Source: an uncultured Solirubrobacteraceae bacterium
GTDB taxonomy: Bacteria; Actinomycetota; Thermoleophilia; Solirubrobacterales; Solirubrobacteraceae
Assembly: GCA_963728465.1 (NCBI GenBank)
Contig: CAVSJY010000007.1
Coordinates: forward strand, 25,090 to 89,089
Direction: 5' to 3'
DNA: 64,000 bases
Positions 29,208 to 44,614 of the stretch are shown here, in pieces (positions within the stretch are counted from its first letter, which is position 1; every line of letters begins with the position of its first letter). The notes under the pieces were generated by a model. It was not told where the DNA came from, ran no database searches, and saw only the letters and a list, made by a program, of their open reading frames with translations. The position numbers and the translations under genes are program-made.

Positions 29208-31254
29208 ATGGATCACCGCCTGGAGGAGCCCGACCAGCCCTGGATGATGCGCACGTACGCGGGGCATTCGACCGCGCGCGAGTCCAACGAGCTGTACCGC
29301 CGCAACCTCGCCAAGGGCCAGACCGGGCTCAGCATCGCCTTCGACCTCCCGACCCAGACCGGCTACGACGCCGACCACGAGCTCGCGCGCGGCGAGGTCG
29401 GCAAGGTCGGCGTGCCCGGTGGCGCACAAGGGCGACATGCACGCGCTGCTCGACGGGATCCCGCTGGACCAGATGAACACGTCGATGACGATCAACGCGA
29501 CGGCGGCGTGGCTGCTGGCGCTCTACATCGTCGCCGCCGAGGAGAACGGGATCGACGCAGGACGTCCTCCAGGGCACGACCCAGAACGACATCATCAAGG
29601 AGTACCTGAGCCGGGGCACGTACGCGTTCCCGCCCGGCCCGAGCCTGCGCCTGATCGCGGACATGGTCGCCTACACGGTCGAGCACGTCCCGAAGTGGAA
29701 CCCGATCAACATCTGCTCCTACCACCTGCAGGAGGCCGGGGCGACGCCGATGCAGGAGATCGCGTACGCGCTCTCCACCGCGATCGCCGTGCTCGACGAG
29801 GTGCAGGCGCGCGTCCCGCAGGACCGCATGGGCGCGGTGTTCGGGCGCATCTCGTTCTTCGTCAACGCCGGCGTCCGCTTCGTCGAGGAGCACGCCAAGC
29901 TGCGCGCGATGGGCGAGCTGTGGGACGAGCTCGGCCGCGAGCGCTACGGCGTCGAGGACCCCAAGCACCGCCGCTTCCGCTACGGCGTGCAGGTCAACTC
30001 GCTCGGGCTGACCGAGTCCCAGCCGGAGAACAACGTCCAGCGGATCGTGCTCGAGGCGCTGGCCGTCACGCTCGGCCGCAACGCCCGCGCCCGCGCGATC
30101 CAGCTCCCCGCCTGGAACGAGGCGCTCGGCCTCCCCCGCCCGTGGGACCAGCAGTGGTCGCTGCGCATCCAGCAGGTGCTCGCCTACGAGACCGACCTGC
30201 TCGAGTACCCCGACATCTTCGAGGGCTCGACGGTCATGGAGGGCCTCGTCGCAGGAGCTCAAGGACGAGCGCCCGCGACGAGATGGCGCGCGTGGCCGAG
30301 CACGGCGGCGCCGTCGAGGCCGTCCCGTACATGAAGGCCGCGCTGGTCGACTCGCACCGCGAGCGGCTCGGCCGGATCGAGGCCGGCGAGCAGGTCCTGG
30401 TCGGCGTCAACCGCTACCAGGAGACCGAGCCGTCGCCGCTGACCGCCGACGCCGAGGGCGGGATCATCGATCGTCGACCCCGCGCGTCGAGGAGCGAGGC
30501 GCACGCCGCGCTGGAGGAGTGGCGCGGCGCAGCGCGACGCAGGCGGCCGTCGACCAGGCGCTCGGGCGAGCTCGCGGCGCGTCGCCGCGACGCGACGAGA
30601 ACATCATGCCGGCGACGATCGCCGCCGCCCGCGCCGGCGCGACCACCGGCGAGTGGGCGCAGGCGCTGCGCGACGCCTTCGGCTCCTACCGCGCGCCGAC
30701 CGGCGTCGGCGAGGCCGCCGCGCCCGCCGCCGACCACCGAGGTCGCCGACCTGCGCGACGAGGTCGCCCGCGTCGGCGAGGCGATCGGCCGCACGCCGAA
30801 GATCCTCGTCGGCAAGCCCGGGCTCGACGGCCACTCCAACGGCGCCGAGCAGATCGCCGTCCGCGCCCGCGACATCGGCATGGACGTCGTCTACGAGGGC
30901 ATCCGCCTCACGCCCGCGCAGATCGCCCGCTCCGCCGTCGACGAGGGCGTCCACGTGATCGGCCTGTCGATCCTCTCCGGCTCCCACCGCGAGCCTGATC
31001 CCCGACGTGATCGAGGCGCTGCGCGAGGCCGGCGGCGAGGACATCCCGGTCGTCGTCGGCGGCATCATCCCCGACGCCGACGTCGAGCCGCTGAAGGCCG
31101 CCGGCGTCGCCGCCGTCTACACGCCGAAGGACTTCGAGCTGACGCGCATCATGCGCGACGTCGTGGCCTCGTCGCCGAGCGCAACGGGGTCTCGCGCGGC
31201 GGCGGCGCTGAAGCGGCGCCGAGCTCGGCGCCCGGCTGCGCGAGCGCGACCTGA
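29208..31254 (+). pseudogene. ecm: ethylmalonyl-CoA mutase (MeaA/Ecm-type B12-dependent acyl-CoA mutase), with at least 7 apparent frameshifts as sequenced
   Basis: The fragments match Ecm/MeaA almost residue for residue as I recall it. Examples are [137 protein letters not shown] and [20 protein letters not shown]. One junction needs GTGGGC where the sequence has GTGGC. Confidence 0.85.
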
Positions 31255-35479: not shown

Positions 35480-36415
35480 CTACCGGAGGTCGAAGCGGCC
35501 GATGCGGCCCTCGTCGCCCGACGCGTACCAGAGGTCGCCGCCTGGCCCGATCGTGATCGAGTCCGGCGCGCTCTTCGTGCGGACGTCGGGCCCGAACACG
35601 CCGCCGGGCGCCATCGAGCCCAGCGTGCCGGCCGAGTGCTGGCCGATCCACAGCGTGTCGCCCGCGAACGCGAGGCCGAGCGGGTCGGCGTTCGCGGTCG
35701 GCAGCGCGTAGCGCGCCGTCACGATGCCCTGAGTCGTCATCCGCGCGATCGCGTTGGTGTCGCGCTCGCCGACGTACAGCGCGCCGTCGCGGCCGGCGAC
35801 GATCGGACCGGGGAGCGTCCCGGCCGGCAGCGCGTACTCGGTGATGGCGCCGTCGGTCGTGATGCGGCCGACCTTGTCGCCGAGCGCCTCGCTGAACCAG
35901 AGCGCACCATCGGGGCCGACGGTGATGTCGGAGGCGAACGCGTCGCTCGTCGGCAGCGGGTACTCCGTGACGTCGCCCGCCGTGGTGATCCGGCCGATGC
36001 GGTCGCCGTGCGCCTCGACGAACCACAGCGCGCCGTCGGGACCGGAGACGATGTCGGTCGGGAACGAGCCGGGGTTGTGCAGCGCGTAGGCGGTCACACG
36101 GCCGCCGGCCGTGACGCGCAGGATGCGGTCGTCACGGTCGGTGACCCACAGCGCGCCGTCCTGGCCGGTCGTGACACCGGCCGGGGTGCCGCCGAGCTGC
36201 ACGAACGAGACGTTGCCCTTGGCCGAGACGCGCCACAGCCGGCCGAGGCTGCCGTCGGGCGCGTACACGGCGTCATCCGGGCCGGCGGCGATGTCGCTGG
36301 GCACCGCGAGCTGGTCGAGCTTGTACTCCTTCGCGCCTGCGACGCCGCTCGACGCGAGCGTGGCCGCGGCGACCATCGCCAGAACGGCGAGGACCCTGCG
36401 TGGGGTGAGCTTCAT
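35480..36415 (-). CDS. secreted beta-propeller protein, streptogramin-lyase (Vgb)-like repeats
   Basis: The 311-aa intact ORF has a signal peptide. It also has about 6 repeats of the pattern GPDGALWF.E...D.IGRIT..G.VTEY.LP. Confidence 0.75.
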   Translation of the reverse strand: MKLTPRRVLAVLAMVAAATLASSGVAGAKEYKLDQLAVPSDIAAGPDDAVYAPDGSLGRLWRVSAKGNVSFVQLGGTPAGVTTGQDGALWVTDRDDRILRVTAGGRVTAYALHNPGSFPTDIVSGPDGALWFVEAHGDRIGRITTAGDVTEYPLPTSDAFASDITVGPDGALWFSEALGDKVGRITTDGAITEYALPAGTLPGPIVAGRDGALYVGERDTNAIARMTTQGIVTARYALPTANADPLGLAFAGDTLWIGQHSAGTLGSMAPGGVFGPDVRTKSAPDSITIGPGGDLWYASGDEGRIGRFDLR

Positions 36416-36528: not shown

Positions 36529-38838
36529 CTAGCTCCCCAGGCGACGGAACAGCAGGTAGGCGACCGCCGCCAGGCCCGCGGCGATCAGCGCCACCAGCGG
36601 ATACACGACCGGCACCAGCGTGCCGCCCAGCGCGGCGAGGCCCGCGGCGACTACGTAGGCGGCGCCCGCGGCGACCACGGTGAGCGCCGCGACCCAGGGA
36701 CGAGCCCCCGCGAACGCGAGTCCGCCGGGGACGAGCGCCAGCATCAGGATGAGCGCCACGTCCAGGGCCGTAGGCGACTGCTTCACGGGCAGCCCGCGCC
36801 GCAGCGTCGAGATGGCGTTGGCGTGGACCTCGACCCCCGGCATCACGCGGCCGCCGTCGCCCCGCGTCGGGTGGAGATCGCCCTGCGCGCGTGCCGACGT
36901 GCCCACGACGACGATCTTGTCGGCGAGGTCGGGCACCGCGCCGTCGAGCACGTCGGTGAAGCGGACGGTCCGGAACGTGCGGGCCGGACCGGCGTAGTCG
37001 ATCACCGCGCTCTCGAAGTCGACCGCCTCGTCGCCCGCGATCTCGGAGGCGACGACGGGCAGGGTCGCGAGCCGGCTCGACTCGGGCTCCAGGCGCGCCA
37101 GGCCGGACTGTCCGACCGAACGGTCGAACTTCAGGTACGCGCCGTCGGGGTACCGCGGGAAGCCCGCGAACGCCGCGTCGGGCGCCTTCACGCCGTCGCC
37201 GAGGACAAGGCCCCTGCCCTGGTCGTCGACGAGCGTCGCGGCGAGCACCAGCCACCCGTGCGCCTCGCGGATCGCCTCCCGGAGCTGCCGATCCCCCGCC
37301 CCGGGCTCCCGGAACTCGAAGTCGTAGACGATCGCGGCCGGCGCGGCGTTCAGCAGCGAGCGGATCAGCTGCGCGTGACGGTCGCGCGGGATCACGTCGC
37401 GGCCGCCGCCGAGCTGCGCCAGCCCCTCGTCGTCGAGATCGACGACCACGATGTCCGGGTCGGCGGCCGGCGTCCCGCGGAGGTCGAAGCGGGCGTCGAC
37501 GGTCCGCAGCTCGCCGCGCTGGAGCCATTCCGGCTCGGCGGCGCGGAGCCCCAAGCCGAGGACGAACGCCGCCAGGACGCCGGCGAGGATCGCGACCCTC
37601 GTGAGCTTCGCCCGCTGGCGGTCGGCGTGCCAGCGCGCCTGCCAGTCGAGCACGGGCTGGCAGAGCACGTCGTGGAACACCTCGTAGCTCGGCGCGTCGT
37701 CGACCGGGCGCAGGATCCGCGCGTCGTCCTCGGACAGCGCCTCCAGCGGCGGCCCGATCTGCTCCTCCGTGGCCCCGGTGACCTTGGCCAGGTCCGTCCG
37801 GCGCTGGGCGACCTTGGCGCCCGACGGCGTCACGAGGTAGTGGAACGCCCCGGCCATCAGGCGCTGCTCGCTCGCGCCGAGGCGGTCCATGTTCTCGCGC
37901 AGGTGCTCGGCGACGATCTCGCGCACGCCGCCCATCTCGCGCAGCGTCGCGATGCGCAGCGTCGCCGACCCCTGCGCCGCCTCGCGGTCCCACAGGCGGC
38001 GCATCACGAGCTGGAGGTACGCCGGCTCGATGCCGTCCTGGGCCGCCGCGCCGCCGCGCGCACGGCCGGCGAACGGCTCGGGCGCGTGGAGCAGGTCCAG
38101 GACGTGCTCCGCCAGCCCGTCCTCGGCCTCGACCTGGCGCTCCGGGTGCAGCTCCCGGTAGAGGCGGATCGGACCCTCGATCGCCTCCTCGGCGTGCTCG
38201 TCGGTCATCGGCCCGACGCGCAGCAGGTTGTCGAACGGCCGCGCGGCGGCGCCCTGGAAGCGGTCGAGCTGCGCGAGCGCGTCCTCGCGCAGCGAGATCA
38301 CGACGCGCGCCCGCACATGCGGGTCGGACAGCGCGACCGGCAGCTCGCGGGCGAGCGCGTCGGCGGCGCCCGGGTGGTAGAGGAAGTGCTCCTCGAACTG
38401 GTCGAGGACGAGCATCAGCAGCGCGTCCATGCGCTCGCCGTACGCCTGGAGGGCGTCGGCCAGCGGCAGGTCGGCCGGCACGGGGTCGGCGCTGCCGCCG
38501 TTCGCGCGCGCCGCCAGCTCGCGGTCGAGCGCCCCGCGGATGGCCGTCAGCGACTCCTCCTTCCAGCTGTCGACCAGCACCACGACCCGCTCGCTGCCGC
38601 CGGGGGCCACCGGCGCCCGGTCGCGGACCTCGGGCACCACGCCGGCCCGCAGCAGCGAGCTCTTGCCGACCCCGCTCGGGCCGTAGACGACCGTCAGGCG
38701 GGAGCTCAGCAGGTTCGCGACGATCAGGTCCCGCTCGGGCTCGCGGCCGAAGAAGAACGGCGCGTCGCCCTCCTTGTACGGCGCGAGGCCGGGGAACGGC
38801 CGCGCCGCGCCGGCGGCTTCAGCGGGCGGGGCGGCCAT
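36529..38838 (-). CDS. STAND-type P-loop NTPase (nSTAND-like) fused through a TM helix to an extracytoplasmic CHASE2 domain and three C-terminal TM helices
   Basis: This is an intact 769-aa ORF. The N-terminus is PFPGLAPYKEGDAPFFFGRE, Walker A is GPSGVGKSSLL (Lys codon 38662..38664) and Walker B is LMLVLDQFEE. The first TM helix is VAILAGVLAAFVLGLGL (aa 414-432). CHASE2 hallmarks are IVVVDLDDEGL...IPRDRHAQLI...IVYDFEFREP...MPGVEVHANAISTL (about 36784..37506). Three hydrophobic helices follow to the end. Confidence 0.85.
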   Translation of the reverse strand: MAAPPAEAAGAARPFPGLAPYKEGDAPFFFGREPERDLIVANLLSSRLTVVYGPSGVGKSSLLRAGVVPEVRDRAPVAPGGSERVVVLVDSWKEESLTAIRGALDRELAARANGGSADPVPADLPLADALQAYGERMDALLMLVLDQFEEHFLYHPGAADALARELPVALSDPHVRARVVISLREDALAQLDRFQGAAARPFDNLLRVGPMTDEHAEEAIEGPIRLYRELHPERQVEAEDGLAEHVLDLLHAPEPFAGRARGGAAAQDGIEPAYLQLVMRRLWDREAAQGSATLRIATLREMGGVREIVAEHLRENMDRLGASEQRLMAGAFHYLVTPSGAKVAQRRTDLAKVTGATEEQIGPPLEALSEDDARILRPVDDAPSYEVFHDVLCQPVLDWQARWHADRQRAKLTRVAILAGVLAAFVLGLGLRAAEPEWLQRGELRTVDARFDLRGTPAADPDIVVVDLDDEGLAQLGGGRDVIPRDRHAQLIRSLLNAAPAAIVYDFEFREPGAGDRQLREAIREAHGWLVLAATLVDDQGRGLVLGDGVKAPDAAFAGFPRYPDGAYLKFDRSVGQSGLARLEPESSRLATLPVVASEIAGDEAVDFESAVIDYAGPARTFRTVRFTDVLDGAVPDLADKIVVVGTSARAQGDLHPTRGDGGRVMPGVEVHANAISTLRRGLPVKQSPTALDVALILMLALVPGGLAFAGARPWVAALTVVAAGAAYVVAAGLAALGGTLVPVVYPLVALIAAGLAAVAYLLFRRLGS

Positions 38839-39777
38839 TGCCGAGCCGCTCCTCCAGCTGGGCGACGTACGCGGCCAGCGGCTGCTCGAAGATGTCGACC
38901 TGGCGGTGGTCCCAGACCTGCCGGTCCAGCGGGTCGACCTGGAGCTGGATCGCCCACGCCGGGTAGGCGACGTCGCGCCGCGACCAGAGGTCGCGCAGCA
39001 GGACGCGCAGGTTCCAGTCGACGAGGCTGTAGCCGAGGAACAGCATCGCGCTGTTGACCAGGTGCACCAGCAGCTTCTTCGGCACGAGGCTCTCGAGGTC
39101 CGTGGTGGCGAGGAAGTCGATGTAGTGGTCCTCGCTGATCACGTAGTAGTCGTTGAACGCGCGGCGCTGCGCGCGGTCGACCGCGCCGTGGACCTTCAGG
39201 ATCACGGACTGCTCGTCGAGCCAGGATCGCGTGTCCTCGCCGGGCTTCTCGATCAGCTCCGGGTCGCCGGTCCCGCCCCGCGCACCCAGCAGCGCCCTTC
39301 GCGCGTGGCGCGGTAGTAGATCGTCGAGAACGGCTCGCCGGCCGCGTCGTAGGCCTGCTCGAGCGCGTCGTCGTAGTTCGTCGTCAGGACGAGCTGGTGC
39401 TGCCCCGTCCGCGCCGGCAGGGCGGCGAGGAAGCGGTGCACCGTGGTCGGGCCGTATTCGGCGCCGAACACGTCGTGCAGCGAGTCGCGCAGGAACGCCT
39501 CGTCCTTGAGCTGCGCGAACTGCGCGACGCGCAGCAGGTCGCCGCGGTCCCGCGGCCCTCGGGGTAGTGGTGCTCGTCCGCGAGCAGCTCGGCCAGCTCC
39601 GCGCCGTTGGGGAGGTTGTGCCCGCGGACGTACGTCTCGTCCTCCGCGCGGTCGGACAGGTTGGCGCCCGCGCCGAGCAGCGTGACCAGCCCGCCGCGCT
39701 CGAGGTTGCGCAGCACCTGCCTGTAGTGGTCCTCGGTCGGGCTGGAGCGCCTGGACGCTCATCGCGGCGCGCCTCAT
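38819..39777 (-). CDS. SIR2-like (SIR2_2, defence-type NADase fold) protein, with at least 2 apparent frameshifts (near 39735, 39560 and 39290)
   Basis: The pieces are LVTLLGAGANLS, QLVLTTNYDDALEQAY, ILKVHGAVDR (His codon 39188..39190) and MLFLGYSLVDWNLR. The ATG at 39777 overlaps the upstream stop (ATGA). The 3' end overlaps the STAND gene by 20 nt. Confidence 0.75.
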
Positions 39778-40327
39778 CGGCGGACAGGCCCGCTGCGGCC
39801 GGCGGCGGAGCGTCGCGCCGGGCTCTTGCGGCGAGGTAGCAGCGGCCGGCGCGGACGTCGACGGTCCGGCCGCCGCCGGTCCGTCACGACGACGAGCCCC
39901 TCCTTGACTTTGAAGATCGTGCCGTCGCAGCGGTCGCGCACCGTCCAGACCGTGCCGCGGCCGGACCCGCGCCCGTAGCCGCCGGCGCCGCGAAAGCCGC
40001 CCGCGCGAGCGGATCCGCATGGACGCCTCGTAGGGCAGCCGCGACGCCCGCGCCCTCTTGCAGCTCTGCGGGCCGCTGTCCAGGCGCAGCGTCGGCAGGG
40101 CGGCCGCCCCGTCGCCCTGCTCGACGGTGAACACGCCGCCGCGAACGAAGCCTGGCCGATGGTGCCCGGGCCGTCGGGCGTCGTCGTCACCGACTCGATC
40201 TCCACGGTCCCGCGCGTCGCGTCGATCGCCGTGTGCACGGGGACCTCGACCGCGGTCCGCAGGCGCGTCTGGAGCGCCGGCGGTCGACGGGGTCCTCCGC
40301 CGTGCCCGGGGCGACGAGTACGGGTCA
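39774..40327 (-). pseudogene. beta-rich secreted-protein module, either a separate ORF or the frameshifted C-terminal extension of the TolB-like protein
   Basis: The fragments are VLVAPGTAEDPVD, EVPVHTAIDATRGTVEIESV, FRGGVFTVEQGDGAAALPTLRLDSGPQSC and RGTVWTVRDRCDGTIFKVKEGLVVVTD, in at least 2 frames. I recall this pattern from C-termini of secreted proteins in related high-GC actinobacteria. Confidence 0.45.
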
Positions 40328-41242
40328 CCCGCCGGGCGCGATCGTGATGGTCTCGCCACGCTCCGGCGGCGCGACGGCGGGCGGGAGCGGCGCCCACGAG
40401 GGATCGCTGCCGGGCGCGACGGGCACGGTCCCGCCCTGGGCGCCGTCCGCGGGCATGACGTACAGGTAGTCGAACGGGACCGTGGCTGCGTATGCGATGC
40501 GCGTCCCGTCCGGCGACCAGGCGGGGAAGTGGTCGAACCCGAGCGAGTCGGCCAGCACGCGGCGGTTGCCGCCGGCGGCGTCGATGGCGTAGATGTCGAG
40601 GTCGCCGTCGTCCTCGTGCGTGTAGGCGAGCTGCGCGCCGTCGGGCGACCACGACGGGTCGGCGTCGAGACCCGGCTCCGTGGTCAGGCGCCGCAGCCCG
40701 CCGCCGGCCGGGTCGATCAGCCACAGGTCCATGTCGCCCGCCGCACGGCCGCTGGCGAACGCGATCGCGTCCCTGGATGACCACGCGGGCTGCTGGTCGA
40801 TCGCGGGGTCGAACGTGATGCGGGTCGGCAAGCCACCCGCCGCCGGCATGACGTAGAGCTCGGAGTTGCCGTCGCGCTCGCTCGCGAACGCGATCCGCGA
40901 GCCGTCCGGCGAGAACGCCGGGTCGTGGTCGCGGGCGGGGTCGGACGTGAGCCGGGTCTGGGCGCCCGTCTCCACGTCGAGCACGTAGATCTCCTCGTTG
41001 CCGTCGCGCGTGCTCGTGAACGCGAGCCGCTTCCCGTCCTGCGACCAGGCGGGGTCGCGGTCGGCGGGCCCGACCGCCACGAGGTCCGTGAGCGCGCCGG
41101 TGCCGTCCGCGTTGATCGTGGCGATCGCGGCGCCGGAGCGCTCGAAGGCGATCGGGCCGTTCGTCCCGGGGAACGCGGCCGAAGCGGGCGCCGCCGCGAC
41201 CGCGGCCACGAGCGCCGCCAGTGGGAGCGCCGCCGCCTTCAC
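40325..41242 (-). CDS. periplasmic TolB-like (PD40 / WD40-like) beta-propeller protein
   Basis: It comprises the last 305 aa of ORF 40325..44713. The GTG start at 41242 overlaps the upstream stop (GTGA). The signal peptide is VKAAALPLAALVAAVAAAPASA. It has repeated P.WSPDG..IAF.S.RDG..ELY motifs. Confidence 0.82.
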   Translation of the reverse strand: MKAAALPLAALVAAVAAAPASAAFPGTNGPIAFERSGAAIATINADGTGALTDLVAVGPADRDPAWSQDGKRLAFTSTRDGNEEIYVLDVETGAQTRLTSDPARDHDPAFSPDGSRIAFASERDGNSELYVMPAAGGLPTRITFDPAIDQQPAWSSRDAIAFASGRAAGDMDLWLIDPAGGGLRRLTTEPGLDADPSWSPDGAQLAYTHEDDGDLDIYAIDAAGGNRRVLADSLGFDHFPAWSPDGTRIAYAATVPFDYLYVMPADGAQGGTVPVAPGSDPSWAPLPPAVAPPERGETITIAPGG

Positions 41243-44200
41243 CGGCCGACCGTAGCCTGCGTCGAGAAGAGCCGGAACAGCGGATCCCCGTAGTGCTGGT
41301 ACGCGCCCCACGACCGCGCGCCGCCGCCGCTCGCGCCGGCGACCTCCTCGCGCGCGCCGCTCATCGCCTTGAACATCGGCTGCGGCTCGTCGGATTGTCC
41401 GAGCAGTGACCGGTAGAGCGTCGTCGCGAACAGGCGCGCCCCGTGGTCGTCGACCGGCCACGCCGTGCAGACGAAGTTGCCGACGCCGCGCGCGAAGAAC
41501 GACTCGGCGAAGCTCGGCGCCAGCGCTGCCGACCGCCGGCCCGAGCGGTCCGGCGTGATGCCGGACTCGCACGCGTTGGAGAACACGAACTCCGGCACCC
41601 GGTCGATCCGGCGCAGCTCGCGTGCCGCGATCGTCTGGCCGCCGGTGAAGATCCAGCCGGACCCCGCCGGGTCCTTGGCGTCGTAGAAGCAGTGGCCGGC
41701 GAAGTGCAGGACGTGGAAGCGCTTGAGGATGAGCTGCTCCAGGACGGCGGTCCGCGTCGCCTCGCGCGGGCCGAGCAGCGCCACGACCTCCACCCGCGGC
41801 GGCTCGCCGGCGCGGTTGGCCTTCTCGAACAGCTCCGCGACCTTGATCCCCTCCTCCTCGGCGCCGGGCAGGTGGGCGTCCTCGGCCGGGTCGGCGATGA
41901 CGAGCACGCGCAGCAGGCGCTCGGGCGGGGGCGGCGGCTCCGGCGGCGGCGCGAACGCGGTGCGCAGCTGCCGCGTCACCGCCGCGCCGATGCCGAGGTG
42001 CGAGTTCAGCCAGTCGGGGCTGTCCTCGGGCGTGGTGCTCGGCATCGCGTCCGCGCGCGTGACGAGCTCCCAGTGGATCCGCGCCGTCGTCGAGTCGAGC
42101 ATCAGGATCACCGGCGAGCCGCTGAGCTGCGGGCCGAGGTCTCCGGGGAACAGCAGCCGCGACAGGTAGCGGCCGTGCTCGCGGCGCCGGGTCGCGTCCG
42201 GCTCGGCCGCGAGCTGGTCGTTGGCCTCCTTCACGAGGTTCGGGTCGAGCGGGACCTCGCGCTCCGGGATCGCCGCCTTGGCGGTGATCGCGCCGAAGCG
42301 ATACGTCGCCCCCTCGCGGGTGATCGTGATGCGGGCGGGGGCCTGCTGCGTCTTGTGGTCGCGCTCGGCGCCCTCGCGCCAGCGCCGCCTGGCGGCCTCG
42401 AGGTCGGTGGCCAGCGCGCGCCGGCGCCACTTCTCCTTCGTCGCCGCGTCGGCGGGCGTGTAGCGGGCGATCAGCCGCTGCTCCTCGGCCATCCGGCGCT
42501 GCGCCACCCCCAGCGCCTCGTCGATCTCGTGCAGCCGGCGCGCGTCGAACTCCACGAACGTCACCGCCCGCACGGCCGAGTCGGCGATCTGCCCGTTGAG
42601 CGCCTGCGCGATGCCCCGCATCCAGGCCGTGATCGCGTCGGCCGGCGGCAGGTTGCCGGTGCCCGCGCCGATCAGCACCGCGGCGACGTGGCGGCGCCCG
42701 ATGCGGCCCGCCGCCCAGCACAGCTCGCGGGCCACCAGCGTCAGCTCGCCCGTGCCGAAGCGCCCGGGCACGCCCATGCCGGCGAGCATGATCAGCCTTC
42801 CGCCCGCGCGGCGGCGGGGGTCGGGCAGGACGAACGGCTGCCCGAGCTGGCCGGTGATCGTGCCGCGCAGCGACAGGTGCGCGATCAGTCCCTCGTGCGG
42901 CAGGCCGGCCGGCGCGCCCCGCGGCGCCGCCTCGCTGAGCGCGAAGTCGAGCGCGGCCTCGGCGGCCTGCGGCTGGACGCCCTCGTAGTGGCCGACGGCG
43001 ATCACGTCGGGCTTGAAGCCCGCGAGCGCCGGAGCCGTGTGCGCCTGGCCGACGTTGCCGTTCCAGAGCCCGATCTCGATCGCGGGCGGCTTCGCCTTGC
43101 GCACGGGCCGGCCGCCGCCGGGCTCGGTCTCGCCCGCGGCGGGCCGGAGGCCGAGCCAGTCGCGGACCACGAGGTCCTCCACGTGGCGCTCCTGCTCGCT
43201 GACCGCCACGGGCGCGGAGGCCGGCGGGTCGCCGCGGCCGAGCGTGCCGTCGTCGCGCGACCCGAGCCGCCGCATCGACTCGCGCATGCGGGCCTCGTCC
43301 TCCGCCGCCTCGCGCTCCGCGGTCGCGCGCAGCGACGCCGGATCGCCGCCGCCGCGGCTCGCGGGCGGCTTGGTCTTCAGGCGCTTGGTCCGGCCTCCGA
43401 GCAGCAGGTCGCCGACCGCGTCGAGGACGGCGGCGTCGCTCGTCAGCGCCCCGTGCGAGACCGGCGCGAAGTAGCGGGTGACGCCGGGCAGGTCGCCGAG
43501 CGCGTGTGGGACGCGGCCGTCGCCGTCGGTGCCGTACTGGTAGGCGGAGGGATCGCCGACGCCGGCCGTGTCGAGGCCCACCACCGTCCGCTGGCCGCTG
43601 CCCGCGACGGCCACCATGCGGGCCGGGTCGGCGACCGGCGCCAGCAGCTCGTGCACCGCCTTCGCCGCGTCGAGGTGGCGCTGGGACACGGCGGCGCCGT
43701 CGTACGTGTCCGCCAGGTACAGCGGCTCGGCGCCCGGCACGGCGGGCGAGGGCAGCATCTGGAACGTGCCGGGGAAGGTGTTGAGCACCTCGCGGACCTC
43801 CGCGAGCCCGAGCCGCAGGTCGGCCAGCGCCAGCAGCCGGACGTGCTCCTCCAGGCCGGCGATGCCGCGCGGCACGTCGTAGGAGCCCTGGTTCGGGACG
43901 CCGAGCATGATCAGCCGGCCGCCGCGCGGGCCGGGCTTGTCGGGCGACCCGTCGCACATCGCGGCCCACTGCTCGGGGTGGGCGGCGACGAACGCGCGCG
44001 CGACGAGCCCGCCCATCGAGTGCGCGACCAGGTGGACCGGCTCGGCGGGGAACCAGCGCTCGATCGCGGCGGCCAGCTCGTCCGCGCTCGTGCGCAGGTC
44101 CTTGCGCCAGTCGTAGGCGAACGCCTGCACGCGCCAGCGCTGGGAGAGGTGCATCAGCAGCTCGCCGTAGTAGCGCTTGAGGATGCCGGCCGTCTGCACG

Positions 44201-44614
44201 CGGCAGCCGGGGTCGCGCTCGCGCTCGCCGGTCGGGTCGAGCGCGAGGTTCGCCACGCCGCCGGAGATGAGCGGGAGCGCCTGGAGCCAGATCAGCGACG
44301 GGCGGTCGCCCTCCTTCTCCGCCGCGCGCGCCAGCGCGGCGCCCATCGAGCCGTGCAGCACCACGACGTTGCCGGCCGGCTCGGCCTCGCCGCGGGTGAG
44401 GTTGCGGTCCAGCGCCCGCTGGTGCATGCGCTGGTAGCGGTCTGCGCCCGAAGTACGCGATCAGGGCCTCCTGCTCGCGCACGCTCGGGCGCGCGAGCAG
44501 GCGGGCGAGCTCCTCCGGCCCGGCCGCCTCGACGGAGGCGATGAACTGCCGCTCATCCAGCTGCGCAGACAATGGTTCCGCCTCACCCGTTCGGTGTCCG
44601 GCCGACCCTGCCAT
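41239..44614 (-). CDS. multidomain protein: helical N-terminus, LCAT/PGAP1-like alpha/beta hydrolase, Macro/LAP-N-like middle domain, C-terminal CHAT protease; one apparent frameshift near 44440
   Basis: ORF 41239..44427 (1062 aa) is intact. The lipase part has FAYDWRKDL and the nucleophile elbow AHSMGG (Ser codon 44017..44019). CHAT has His in HFAGH and Cys in SNACESG (Cys codon 41569..41571). About 60 further N-terminal residues (MAGSAGH...QEALIAYFG) lie in the frame of ORF 40325..44713, from ATG 44614. Confidence 0.82.

Follow-up and report, generated by a model that had tools for sequence, protein, structure and literature searches.

The STAND/NLR-like immune proteins known from bacteria detect phage proteins in the cytoplasm, and the effector is usually part of the same polypeptide. 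Avs5 (AVAST type 5; EfAvs5, PDB 9nc9) is a SIR2-STAND-sensor antiviral protein (PMC11897194). According to the searchable text of PMC8195603 (eLife 2021), the nSTAND1 clade of NTPases, now Pfam PF20703, was named by Kaur, Iyer, Burroughs and Aravind, and CHASE2 figures there as a variable extracellular C-terminal module of another conflict system, EACC2-caspase. Here we analyse a 64,000-nucleotide stretch of contig CAVSJY010000007.1 from an uncultured Solirubrobacteraceae bacterium, hereafter the window, in which the gene of a SIR2_2 protein overlaps the gene of an nSTAND1 NTPase that carries transmembrane (TM) segments and a CHASE2 domain. We propose, as the probable reading, that a stand-alone SIR2 NADase effector is partnered here with an envelope-sensing nSTAND1 NTPase, and that the frame breaks in the SIR2 gene are long-read consensus indels. 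The two genes and their overlap are the following, in window positions.

38819..39777, minus strand: SIR2_2 gene, defence-type, predicted NADase, about 314 residues when read through (Pfam match and colinearity with the homologue P0039)
36529..38838, minus strand: intact gene of a 769-residue nSTAND1 NTPase-TM-CHASE2-3 TM protein (Pfam and hydropathy scan)
38819..38838, minus strand: 20-nt overlap in which the SIR2 gene ends and the nSTAND1-CHASE2 gene begins (from the sequence; kept in most CHASE2-type loci)

Comparison with described systems

The likeness to Avs5 lies in a SIR2 NADase-type effector that is coupled to a STAND NTPase whose C-terminal part is the sensor, and in the predicted fold of the SIR2 family, which matches the Avs5 filament structure when the modelled homologue P0039 is searched with Foldseek. 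In contrast to the single Avs5 polypeptide, SIR2 and NTPase are two genes with a stop codon between them, in the window and in 80/80 surveyed loci; the NTPase is a membrane-crossing member of the nSTAND1 clade and bears an extracytoplasmic CHASE2 domain (WD40 elsewhere); and the CHASE2-type loci have an exported PD40 protein as a third, conserved partner. The nSTAND1 conflict systems share with the window the NTPase clade (164 bits) and the variability of effector and sensor modules, which places the window protein among them, whereas their effectors are coupled through Death-like or EAD adaptors, as far as the searchable text of PMC8195603 goes, and the effector here is a bare SIR2.

ThsA (Thoeris), DSR2 and KomC (Kongming) have the same SIR2_2-type fold, and the GAGxS motif, the Asn of TNYD and the His of HG are kept; however, they are only ~20% identical to the window family, and the activating partner here would be a STAND NTPase. 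The SLOG or Macro domain of ThsA is absent from the SIR2 protein (no search for a ThsB TIR protein was made in the window), as are the long sensor arm of DSR2 and the KomB partner of KomC. No description of the SIR2 plus nSTAND1-TM-CHASE2/WD40 pair was found in the searchable literature, including the searchable text of PMC8195603. Compared with the cytoplasmic immune proteins, this family has its SIR2 effector and its NTPase as separate proteins and puts the sensor, CHASE2 here and WD40 elsewhere, beyond a TM segment.

The SIR2 gene

Three minus-strand reading frames together spell the SIR2 gene, and the protein obtained by reading through them matches Pfam SIR2_2 (PF13289) with 72.1 bits (E 6.4e-20, cut-off 24.5). 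An earlier note made from the letters of the window, the sequence-only reading, had pointed out four SIR2_2-type motifs, and all four were located in the three-frame translation, with the KVHG His codon found at 39190..39188, where that reading had put it. The motifs and the start junction are as follows.

39674..39654, minus strand: GAGANLS motif
39384..39367, minus strand: TTNYDD motif
39376..39378, minus strand: Asn codon of TTNYDD (N129), predicted catalytic Asn, invariant among 97 homologues
39196..39185, minus strand: KVHG motif
39188..39190, minus strand: His codon of KVHG (H192), invariant in 97 sequences
39040..39011, minus strand: FLGYSLVDWN motif
39777..39774, minus strand: ATGA junction of the SIR2 start and the upstream gene's stop (from the sequence)

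By alignment offset, H192 takes the position of DSR2 H171, KomC H146 and BcThsA H152. Translation more likely begins at ATG 39762 (MSVQ..., as in P0039) than at ATG 39777 (MRRAAMSVQ...); both candidates form ATGA-type junctions in the present assembly. P0039, the closest intact homologue, has 314 residues, is 85% identical and comes from a short JGI metagenome contig (L037). With 8000 candidates scored, 1066 clusters fall in the family at E ≤ 0.001. Almost all are stand-alone SIR2_2 proteins of 305-330 residues, and PF13289 is present in 120/120 homologues among the matches listed. A search of the PDB with the family profile returned antiphage SIR2 NADases only (ThsA, DSR2, KomC). The AlphaFold2 model, which is of P0039 and not of the window protein, reached a mean predicted local distance difference test score of 91.8 and a predicted template-modelling (TM) score of 0.91, and its 50 best Foldseek matches were KomC, ThsA, DSR2 and the Avs5 filament (probability 1.0, TM-score 0.6-0.7). 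The SIR2 domain takes up the whole 314 residues, with no second Pfam match and no adaptor domain, and PADLOC matched SIR2 only partially, to ThsA/PDC, and had no meaningful match for the NTPase.

The hallmarks of a defence-type SIR2 NADase, a catalytic Asn (TNYD) and a His (xHG), are present at the sequence level, and the modelled fold is closest to known NADase effectors. On motifs and profile match, this is a real gene for a predicted defence-type SIR2 enzyme and, by analogy with its nearest relatives, the window protein would be an NADase. Another role for an intact gene seems unlikely to us, i.e. that the protein is no NAD+-depleting death effector but makes an ADP-ribose-derived signal, carries out ADP-ribosylation or deacylation, or regulates the NTPase or the neighbouring proteases. 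SIR2-fold enzymes do include deacylases and ADP-ribosyltransferases, the proven NADases share only ~20% identity with this family, and genes of CHAT and caspase proteases adjoin in the window; yet the nearest neighbours in sequence and structure are all NAD+-hydrolysing defence effectors, nothing is added to the bare SIR2 domain, and the CHAT-lipase gene lies outside the conserved module, since none of the 88 other loci examined has it.

The nSTAND1 partner and the PD40 gene

Pfam assigns nSTAND1 (PF20703, E 1.1e-47, 164 bits) and CHASE2 (E 5.2e-35) to the 769-residue open reading frame (ORF) that follows SIR2. This ORF starts directly with the nSTAND1 motif, with no visible adaptor domain, contains the Walker motifs GPSGVGKS and LDQFEE, and has TM segments at residues 415-433, 694-712, 716-734 and 741-759 by hydropathy scan. 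Its parts, in order, are a cytoplasmic P-loop module, the first TM segment, CHASE2 and the other three TM segments. The NTPase ATG at 38838 precedes the SIR2 stop at 38819 by 20 nt, and a Shine-Dalgarno-like GGAGGAG stands ~11 nt before that ATG. The two genes are coupled by overlapping codons, and the ATGA start overlap (39777..39774) and the 20-nt 3' overlap (38819/38838) described in the sequence-only reading are both there.

Co-occurrence of the SIR2 and NTPase genes in related genomes had been set beforehand by that reading as a test. Our survey covered the best 80 loci among GTDB species representatives, which span about ten phyla by record titles and include cultured Actinoplanes and Humibacillus. 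The ORF directly downstream of SIR2 carries nSTAND1 by Pfam in 80/80 of these loci, and in nearly every one the start of a large ORF overlaps the end of SIR2 by 4 nt or 20 nt. The same order, SIR2 and then nSTAND1, is found on three contigs with 45-58% identical homologues, with an overlap of 20 nt where the tail is CHASE2 and of 4 nt where it is WD40. A WD40 propeller forms the tail in 47/71 cases and CHASE2 in six, all Solirubrobacterales, and in 66/69 long partner ORFs a hydrophobic 19-mer follows the NTPase closely, at residues ~424-478. Within the genome to which the window belongs (G000), the SIR2 paralogues lie directly upstream of nSTAND1 genes in 4/4 cases (one CHASE2 tail, two WD40 tails, one unassigned tail). 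These observations strongly support that the SIR2 protein is an obligate, dedicated partner of a membrane-spanning nSTAND1 NTPase, and the pair is widespread in soil bacteria of about ten phyla. The earlier proposal of an effector of the STAND-CHASE2 protein, perhaps broken by selection, is borne out in its first half, a dedicated defence-type SIR2 partner (80/80, 4/4), and not in its second, the cause of the breaks.

The CHASE2-type loci have a third conserved partner, a PD40 gene, which in the window adjoins SIR2 on its 5' side.

39774..41242, minus strand: PD40 (TolB-like) exported beta-propeller with a C-terminal beta-rich module, about 489 residues, five frame changes (colinear with a 494-residue protein of locus L031)

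Colinearity with the 494-residue L031 protein identifies this stretch as one gene, Pfam finds PD40 on its relatives, and the N-termini of both the L031 and the window protein are signal-peptide-like. A co-oriented PD40 gene ends at the SIR2 start, joined to it by ATGA, in every CHASE2-type locus (the window, G005, L031, L033/34, L040, L044, L045, L049, L051 and L078).

Frame breaks and assembly quality

The sequence-only reading held that three frame changes are needed to read the SIR2 gene, and exactly three result from a frameshift-aware protein-to-DNA alignment to P0039. DNA alignment to L037 (84.5% identity) has the same three single-base gaps and no further coding-region indel. The breaks lie in a wider patch of indels that spans the PD40/SIR2 boundary.

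39739..39743 (~39741), minus strand: frame change 1, one extra base, CAGCCCGACC against GAGGCCGACC in the relative L037 (alignments to P0039 and L037)
39548..39552 (~39550), minus strand: frame change 2, one base missing, GCCGCG-GGACC (same alignments)
39276..39280 (~39278), minus strand: frame change 3, one base missing, GTGCGCG-GGGCGGG (same alignments)
39278..40293, no strand: indel patch, eight single-base indels in 1016 nt (frameshift-aware alignment)

The SIR2 breaks are very probable assembly indels because the assembly is error-ridden, the patch crosses from one gene into the next, the pattern is reversed in a sister assembly, and the protein remains colinear and constrained throughout. 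The genome G000 (4.8 Mb, 15 contigs, 73.9% complete) resembles the other genomes of its genus, and many relatives are long-read soil metagenome-assembled genomes (MAGs). Its essential rpoC gene (G000:C13:297043-300874) is split over two frames near 297340 while the adjoining rpoB is intact, which proves directly that the assembly contains indel errors. As a sample of the error rate, 178 ORFs with high G+C at third codon positions, taken from 400 kb of a complete genome of the same family, were searched against G000; frame-split orthologues made up 36/106 (34%), with 51 changes in 126 kb, i.e. at least 0.40 per kb. Two methylmalonyl-CoA-mutase-family genes (window 29232-30683 and G000:C5:216285-217831), ~1.5 kb each, have 4 and 5 shifts and fall into 5 and 6 frame pieces, and a third copy (C15) is intact; we conclude from the broken and intact copies that the errors are patchy and clustered.

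Within the patch, three of the indels fall in SIR2 (the lower half) and five in PD40, near 40293, 40147, 39996, 39869 and 39808, with none in the 2.3-kb NTPase gene or in the 5' part of PD40, and kilobases of clean sequence flank it on both sides. It looks like a locally poor consensus, e.g. from low coverage or strain mixture. In G005, an assembly from the same genus, the syntenic locus needs 0 changes for SIR2, 9 for PD40 and 2 for the NTPase. Read through, the SIR2 protein aligns colinearly with P0039 at every residue and keeps 63/63 invariant columns of an 18-sequence alignment. Measured against L037, its ratio of nonsynonymous to synonymous substitution rates (dN/dS) is 0.27 for the whole gene; the three frame segments have 0.26, 0.20 and 0.32, with no relaxed selection 3' of any break. 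Base composition was ruled out as the cause of the patch, the GC content and the density of G/C runs being equal to those of the clean flanks.

Several results pull the other way and count against our proposal. The patch has 4 missing and 4 extra bases against 7 missing and 44 extra in the genome-wide sample (Fisher p = 0.03); one extra base accounts for 44/51 of the detected changes there, a strong insertion bias unlike the mixed spectrum of the patch. Three shifts in 0.94 kb are ~8x the mean rate (Poisson p = 0.007), though errors are clearly clustered. A closer intact homologue, sought in the protein collection with the read-through protein, was not found and P0039 (85%) stays the best; metagenome contigs scanned for the exact pattern across junction 3, with the run length left variable, had no match; and PADLOC has no model for a SIR2 plus nSTAND1 pair. 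About 30 genes with that shift density are expected genome-wide at the mean rate, even without clustering.

If the frameshifts were real, SIR2 would be a recently inactivated pseudogene, e.g. a toxic NADase counter-selected while the sensor was kept, as the sequence-only reading had suggested. The three breaks in 0.94 kb against none in the adjacent 2.3-kb NTPase gene, together with the departure of the indel spectrum from the genome-wide errors, would suit such a history. We nevertheless find it improbable, as the eight-indel patch breaks PD40 too, local break densities are similar in essential and housekeeping genes, the sister assembly G005 has the opposite pattern, and all family-invariant residues are kept, with no in-frame stop and a dN/dS of 0.2-0.3 after each break. 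Counter-selection is thus not supported, given an assembly ridden with indels even in rpoC, a patch that hits PD40 as well and the reversed pattern of G005. Programmed frame changes, by translational frameshifting or by phase-variable homopolymers that keep a toxic gene off, are effectively refuted by intact single-frame relatives: all three sites do lie in short G or C runs, but these are only 3-4 nt, shifts are needed in both directions, L037, G005 and ~1000 homologues stay in one frame at these positions, and the same type of break occurs throughout the assembly.

We are therefore highly confident that the SIR2 frame breaks are assembly artefacts, and the gene is most likely intact in the living organism. 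Its broken state in the assembly carries no biological message, and frame breaks in G000 and in sister long-read MAGs are not to be taken as pseudogenisation.

The nSTAND1-CHASE2 gene of the long-read MAG MFD03346 (L044, 6911-9751) is frame-split too, with its CHASE2 part in another frame. The same class of artefact affects sister assemblies such as this one.

Proposed mechanism

With an intact SIR2 partner, the following series of steps can be proposed. A cue at the cell envelope would be sensed by the extracytoplasmic CHASE2 domain, perhaps together with the PD40 protein, and would lead to NTP-dependent oligomerisation of the nSTAND1 module on the cytoplasmic face of the membrane. The NTPase oligomer would then assemble and activate the bound SIR2 partner, and the activated SIR2 would hydrolyse NAD+, so that the affected cell stops growing or dies. 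For the NAD+ hydrolysis, the contact between SIR2 and NTPase, the trigger and the outcome, we infer these steps by analogy with STAND NTPases and SIR2 effectors (Avs5, DSR2, ThsA, KomC).

More tentatively, the trio of PD40, SIR2 and nSTAND1-TM-CHASE2 proteins could be an outside-in receptor for innate immunity or cell death, a possibility to which we give less than even weight. The propeller and CHASE2 would detect an event at the level of the envelope (e.g. a foreign cell, a small molecule or an adsorbing phage), and the STAND NTPase would pass the signal through the membrane to activate a SIR2 NADase that is a separate protein in the cytoplasm. If this were true, the trio would represent NLR-like immunity in the form of a membrane receptor, a form without experimental description so far.

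Neighbouring genes and further pairs

Upstream of PD40 stands a gene that combines lipase and CHAT domains.

44427..41239: lipase-CHAT gene

It was considered as a member of the conserved module and, judged from the SIR2 loci, ruled out, since none of the 88 others has a homologue; it is a neighbour in a conflict island. On the other side, 113 nt downstream of the NTPase gene, a minus-strand gene at window 35480-36415 encodes a Vgb_lyase-family beta-propeller (Pfam E 9e-112) with a signal-peptide-like N-terminus, and no such gene was seen in the related loci.

A protein of ~268 residues, with an N-terminal hydrophobic segment and no Pfam match, is encoded next to the SIR2-nSTAND1 pair, directly downstream or in some cases upstream, at L033:12470-13276, with homologues at L040, L044, L045, L049, L051, L063, L088, L112 and others. 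The window lacks this protein, which may be a fourth, facultative component.

The other SIR2 plus nSTAND1 pairs of G000 are located as follows.

C8:603491-605708: SIR2 plus nSTAND1 pair
C14:76446-78136: SIR2 plus nSTAND1 pair (extent of the nSTAND1 match; WD40 tail to ~79500)
C15:448886-450786: SIR2 plus nSTAND1 pair

Several genes of these three further pairs are frame-split as well.

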